Shown here in pieces: positions 1,297 to 1,663 of a stretch of DNA of 39,980 bases (position 1 is its first letter; every line of letters begins with the position of its first letter). This stretch comes from Escherichia coli (lineage in GTDB: Bacteria > Pseudomonadota > Gammaproteobacteria > Enterobacterales > Enterobacteriaceae): the NCBI RefSeq assembly GCF_003334405.1, contig NZ_QOWM01000025.1, one strand, 5' to 3'. A model generated the notes under the pieces. The model had not been told where the DNA came from. It made no database searches and saw only the letters and a program-made list of their open reading frames with translations. A program made the translations under genes and the position numbers.

Positions 1297-1312
1297 AGTT
1301 TTACTCAGACAT

Positions 1313-1418
1313 AAAAAAAACCCGGCATAGGGGACCGGGAAGAGGATAGTCTGCCGTCTCCAGACTAATAAACCGTTATAACACTCCCTGTTGGCACGGG
1401 AAACTTTGTGCTCTCAGT
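1313..1418 (-). ncRNA. gadY: GadY small RNA (about 105 nt), antisense to the gadX 3' end/UTR
   Basis: Minus-strand sequence ACTGAGAGCACAAAGTTTCCCGTGCCAACAGGG…CCCGGTCCCCTATGCCGGGTTTTTTTT matches my memory of GadY, ending in a GC hairpin plus 8 U intrinsic terminator; it sits in the gadX-gadW gap. Confidence 0.75.
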
Positions 1419-1663
1419 AATTTAAATATAACTTTTACTGGAAATAAGATCAGCCATTTTTTTATAAACATAAGCTATACGCTGTGCGAAAATATATTCG
1501 TGCTGCATTTACTTATTATCAATTAACTGTTATGCAAAACTACTTTGTGGATAAATTTTGGTCCTACCAAATCTGGCAGTTTTTGCGCTAAGAAACAGTC
1601 TGGCATCATTTCATTAGTATACTGAAATTGAAATAATCGCAGTATGAAATATAAGGGATAATC

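Follow-up and report, generated by a model that had tools for sequence, protein, structure and literature searches.

Does the space between gadX and gadW harbor, on its minus strand, an sRNA gene that open reading frames do not reveal, and is that gene gadY? The question arises in a 39,980-nucleotide stretch of Escherichia coli DNA (the window), for which the original prediction had proposed a gadY sRNA between the two genes on the opposite strand and had named a search with the Rfam GadY covariance model as a check. We ran the whole window against Rfam 15 and found that RF00122 (GadY) matched the minus strand end to end, taking in model positions 1-114 of 114 at 1421..1308 (148.2 bits vs. a gathering score of 45, E = 1.4e-31); a permissive Rfam rescan of 1100-1800 returned no RNA family besides GadY at E <= 1. 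The interval 1418..1313 is moreover identical at 106/106 positions to the curated ncRNA gadY (b4452, formerly IS183) of E. coli K-12 MG1655, where the feature ('small regulatory RNA GadY') occupies NC_000913.3 3664864-3664969 and is flanked by gadW and gadX. The layout of gadX (+), GadY (-) and gadW (+) is common to the window and MG1655, and only two bases, 299 and 1421, differ between them across window positions 1-2760. The genes around it (gadA, gadX, gadW, mdtF, mdtE, gadE, hdeD, hdeA, hdeB, yhiD, dctR and slp) are those of the acid fitness island. We conclude, with a probability of about 97%, that 1418..1313 on the minus strand is gadY of the E. coli acid fitness island, a cis-antisense sRNA, described as binding Hfq and stabilizing gadXW, that has its own promoter and intrinsic terminator (Table 1), and within the gap we found no sequence feature at odds with this reading.

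Table 1. Features in and around the gadX-gadW gap, in window coordinates, with nt numbers counted along GadY.
Feature	Position	Strand	Basis
gadX, AraC-family acid-resistance activator, 274 aa	472..1296	+	ORF; annotated in MG1655 and PGAP records
gadY sRNA gene	1313..1418	-	106/106 identity to b4452 and RF00122 match
Sense target: gadX 3' UTR / gadX-gadW intercistronic RNA, fully complementary to GadY	1313..1418	+	overlap
U8 tail of the gadY terminator	1313..1320	-	sequence and terminator scan
gadY intrinsic terminator stem-loop (nt 80-98), CCCGGTCCCCTATGCCGGG, 6 pairs (5 G-C), 7-nt loop	1321..1339	-	terminator scan, fold, Rfam model
GadY hairpin 2 (nt 52-72), 7-bp stem, loop GAGACGG, GGA at the stem-loop junction (nt 58-60)	1347..1367	-	fold and Rfam
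GadY hairpin domain 1 (nt 1-47), GGA at nt 32-34	1372..1418	-	minimum-free-energy fold and Rfam consensus structure
SNP at gadY -3: A in the window, C in MG1655 and the Rfam consensus	1421	-	sequence comparison
gadY -10 hexamer TATATT (-12 to -7)	1425..1430	-	assigned by hand, counting from the 5' end annotated at 1418
Weak gadY -35 CTGATC (-35 to -30), overlapped by AppY motif ATGGCTGA (1457..1450)	1448..1457	-	read from sequence
gadY upstream regulatory DNA with the divergent gadW promoter and leader	1464..1663		highest variability within the gap
gadW, second cistron of the gadXW transcript, 242 aa	1664..2392	+	ORF; annotated in MG1655 and PGAP records

Some details of the original prediction needed adjustment. 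It had flagged 1297-1663, which is the entire gadX-gadW gap, and the RNA itself takes up only 106 of those 367 bases. It had described the RNA as antisense to the gadX 3' end, which is right for the gadX 3' UTR and the intercistronic RNA but not for the gadX coding sequence, with which GadY has zero overlap. The length it gave, about 105 nt, is the literature figure, and the curated MG1655 feature measures 106 nt. Set beside GadY of K-12, the copy in the window agrees in the RNA itself and in position, strand, fold, terminator, promoter hexamers and neighbors, and the sole difference is one base at promoter position -3, outside the RNA. The gene is thus an already known one, neither a new member of its family nor a variant. 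GadY is a standard cis-antisense sRNA that raises the expression of its target and is part of the circuit by which E. coli survives stomach acid, and finding it here adds nothing new.

The GC-rich hairpin followed by eight U that had been predicted on the minus strand is present at the 3' end of the gene. Its distance from gadX was also given correctly: the gadX stop codon TAG lies at 1294-1296, 16 bases intervene (1297-1312), and 1313 is the 17th base. A hairpin with a T/A run placed just beyond the gadX stop could be taken for a terminator of gadX, or for a bidirectional one, with a separate sRNA gene being absent, and the site is indeed insignificant when considered alone, as the 700 bases scanned yielded one terminator-like site where shuffles lead one to expect 0.6. 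However, the T run lies on the minus-strand side only; on the plus strand the hairpin has A8 before it and AAGAGGA after it, and there is therefore no intrinsic terminator for gadX at this site. Nor is a terminator enough to account for an RF00122 match that spans all positions of the model and so runs beyond it, for an interval identical to an experimentally characterized curated ncRNA, for invariance that extends over all 106 nt instead of the hairpin alone, or for the minus-strand RNA of ~105 nt that the literature already reports for K-12. We give the proposal of a terminator and nothing else virtually no credence. The lack of an intrinsic terminator behind gadX also fits read-through from gadX into gadW, and thus co-transcription of the two genes.

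Folding of GadY gave a minimum-free-energy structure equal to the Rfam three-hairpin consensus, in which the third hairpin is the terminator with its U8. An A/U-rich linker together with the terminator hairpin and U8 can be seen in the GadY sequence, and we infer that the hairpin and U8 tail make up a 3' module of the kind that Hfq usually binds. In stability the fold does not stand apart from those of shuffled sequences (z = -0.73), and we therefore rejected stability as evidence. Variation at the paired positions is zero, and covariation therefore neither supports nor challenges the GadY structure. CsrA typically binds a GGA located within a loop or close to one. GadY reportedly occurs as three forms (~105, ~90 and ~59 nt) with a common 3' end; in that case the two shorter forms would start close to nt 17 and nt 48, in A/U-rich segments that the fold predicts to be unpaired.

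Upstream of the annotated gadY 5' end the minus strand reads ...AAATGGCTGATCTTATTTCCAGTAAAAGTTATATTTAAATT, and the promoter that we recognize in it equals that of MG1655 except at -3. Its -10 hexamer is unchanged in 7/7 Escherichia sequences. A generic sigma-70 scan did not list the gadY promoter, which reached 8 of 12 against a cut-off of 9 of 12, because of its weak -35. AppY is described as binding the gadY promoter, with a motif, ATGSCWGM, that overlaps the gadY -35 (PMC10057817), and ATGGCTGA fits this motif. The promoter inputs reported in the literature also include GadX/GadW and ArcA.

The base at -3 raises the question of whether gadY, while present, might be expressed differently in this strain, since the C-to-A change lies in the discriminator between the -10 and the start and is rare: among 5386 other complete E. 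coli genomes with a match, a single one (strain N17) also has the A at 1421, and the rest of the promoter is highly conserved. The segment from -1 to -5 nevertheless tolerates change, as it varies in other Escherichia (a G at -2 in L005 and a T at -5 in L007), and the -10, the -35 and the start base are all intact here. Judged from the sequence, an effect of the substitution on expression would be improbable.

The remainder of the gap, 1464..1663, differs at 11-37 of 200 positions in other Escherichia. At its gadW end we found a Shine-Dalgarno-like AGGGA at 1654-1658, five bases ahead of the gadW ATG at 1664; we could not place the gadW promoter within 1464..1663. Citing papers credit Tramonti 2008 with the finding that the gadY and gadW promoters diverge, and with the GadX/GadW sites. 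The small ORFs in the gap (26-49 aa) were considered as an alternative content and rejected, since each either falls within the least conserved sequence or runs across GadY or the gadY promoter.

How would an RNA in this position act? The complementarity between GadY and its target is perfect because the two are encoded on opposite strands of the same interval, 1313..1418. The literature describes GadY as an Hfq-binding sRNA that accumulates in stationary phase under RpoS control, and citing papers attribute its pairing with the gadX 3' UTR, and the resulting processing and stabilization of gadXW, to Opdyke 2004/2011 and Tramonti 2008. One such secondary source contradicts itself on the enzyme that cleaves gadXW, giving RNase E in the main text but RNase III in a figure legend. 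A 79-bp RNase III-dependent cluster of double-stranded RNA has been captured at gadY in vivo (PMC7373196). Put together with the features of Table 1, these reports suggest the following course. gadY would be transcribed from its own promoter, divergent from that of gadW, with RpoS providing for accumulation in stationary phase and GadX/GadW, AppY and ArcA adding input as reported, and its transcription would end at the intrinsic terminator, with 16 nt left between it and the gadX stop codon. As the literature has it, GadY would then pair with the complementary gadX 3' UTR and gadX-gadW intercistronic RNA, and this duplex would direct the gadXW transcript to be cleaved in a reaction that involves RNase III. 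The cleaved gadXW products would be more stable, so that GadX (and GadW) would rise and, with them, glutamate-dependent acid resistance (gadA, gadBC). If we assume an offset of 1977 for the older genome coordinates in which PMC7373196 gives its positions, the captured double-stranded cluster presumably corresponds to GadY nt 16-94, or window positions 1403-1325. A comparable arrangement is described for SraG of the rpsO-pnp intercistronic region, which, like GadY, is an opposite-strand sRNA between co-oriented genes with RNase III-linked post-transcriptional control (PMC5029454); the two are compared by description, are unrelated in sequence and locus with no homology implied, and differ in that GadY stabilizes the cleavage products of its target.

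We then asked how well the gene is conserved. Of 5426 complete E. coli genomes, 5414 contain the 367-base gap, chromosomal every time, and the 106-nt GadY is found in 5413 of the 5426 at 0-1 mismatch (at least 99% identity). Among 60 genomes sampled at even spacing, 58 had a full-length copy that was 100% identical, one had a copy with 1 mismatch and one had a copy that aligned over 105/106 positions free of mismatches. E. coli KFu015 (L004 2831-4061, NZ_CP147130.1) is among the few E. coli genomes without gadY: an IS1A there replaces the 3' part of ccp together with gadA, gadX and gadY, and of the gap only the 61 bases nearest to gadW are left.

GadY remains constant even where its surroundings diverge. 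Relative to the window, strains AVS0465 and EcPF14 differ at 50-51 of 825 positions in gadX, at 39-40 of 729 in gadW and at 11 of 200 in the rest of the gap, vs. 0 of 106 in GadY. Three diverged representatives of Escherichia species likewise show 0 substitutions in GadY with flanks differing by 8-20%, a comparison biased to conserved copies, as these outgroups were found by an exact two-anchor pattern that fixes 22/106 GadY positions; the scan of the genome collection with that pattern, which would overlook diverged orthologs, returned three Escherichia records only and is no measure of distribution outside E. coli. One of the three, L006, carries a single 1-nt A insertion inside GadY. Across seven Escherichia sequences there is no substitution at 1309-1419 (111 bp), with flanks that differ by up to 20%, and by our own arithmetic the flank rate (6-17%) would lead one to expect ~6 to 15 substitutions in GadY vs. 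the 0 seen in 106 nt. This pattern indicates that strong purifying selection acts on GadY or on its complement. Within E. coli, gadX and gadW alleles differ by ~5-6% and the stretch from gadY to gadW is likewise variable, such that the invariant GadY forms a sharp island of conservation.

What such selection preserves is a separate matter. Complementarity between cis-antisense partners survives any mutation, so that the invariance of 1309-1419 suggests constraints other than the pairing with gadX; judging from sequence comparison, such constraints would be consistent with the trans roles proposed in the literature. We therefore considered whether the RNA, while being gadY, is maintained mainly for trans roles (Hfq-dependent mRNA partners, titration of CsrA) or for control of gadW, with the cis effect on gadX being secondary. 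Pairing alone cannot explain 0 substitutions at 1309-1419 where the flanks differ by 6-20%, but the invariance could arise equally from constraints that act on both strands simultaneously, with the structure and Hfq binding of the sRNA on one and recognition of the gadXW RNA by an RNase on the other, and the three diverged sequences on which it partly depends came from the pattern with its fixed positions. The Escherichia sp. MOD1-EC7003 sequence (L007, NZ_PTRE01000203.1, 1122-3000) has lost the equivalent of window 429-1050, a deletion that takes away roughly the first 193 codons of gadX along with the bases immediately before its start codon, and it retains a GadY identical at 106/106 positions and an intact gadW, as would be expected if GadY served something other than gadX; this deletion is, however, seen in a single draft genome and could be of recent origin. 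GadY contains two GGA motifs, and the literature reports that it titrates CsrA (PMC10057817, citing Parker 2017), targets SdiA and has many Hfq-linked mRNA partners. Against this, the same literature presents the cis effect on gadXW as the experimentally established function. On balance we consider it possible but rather doubtful that trans roles or gadW control are what selection mainly keeps. Were trans roles or gadW control to prove dominant, this would refine known biology at which the literature already hints and would not amount to a new kind of system.

The claim that gadY escapes ORF-based annotation was borne out, since no PGAP RefSeq record that we examined has a feature under the match. 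This omission is pipeline policy and not a discovery. As PGAP leaves even a near-invariant gadY unlabeled, scans should first remove known Rfam families and only then flag terminators between genes. Elsewhere in the window, two tandem full-length matches to AgrB (RF02891) lie at 16706-16789 and 16937-17020 on the minus strand (108 and 106 bits), flanked by arsR and by dinQ, a type I toxin gene (17295-17378, +), and without PGAP annotation, and are presumably the agrA/agrB antisense pair. Like GadY, AgrA and AgrB of the dinQ locus are short regulatory RNAs that have intrinsic terminators and go unnoticed in ORF-based annotation; they are members of another family, lie ~15 kb away in the window and repress a toxin mRNA, whereas GadY stabilizes a regulator mRNA.

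Two further Rfam matches lie in the window. One, to ES205, falls at 7200-7271 on the minus strand in the gadE-mdtE spacer (105 bits, with the gathering score at 86). It shares its strand with gadE, lies ~118 nt beyond the gadE stop and overlaps an opposite-strand PGAP 'hypothetical protein' (7110-7388); it is probably the gadE 3'-UTR sRNA GadF. The other, to ES036 (CssrF) at 25798-25838 on the minus strand, is barely above threshold (42.0 vs. 37.6 bits). Adjoining slp is an intact 1224-bp ORF (12569-13792, -) that PGAP labels 'hypothetical protein' and that we assume to be yhiS, a gene interrupted by IS5 in MG1655; if so, the window would come from a K-12-like phylogroup A strain other than MG1655.
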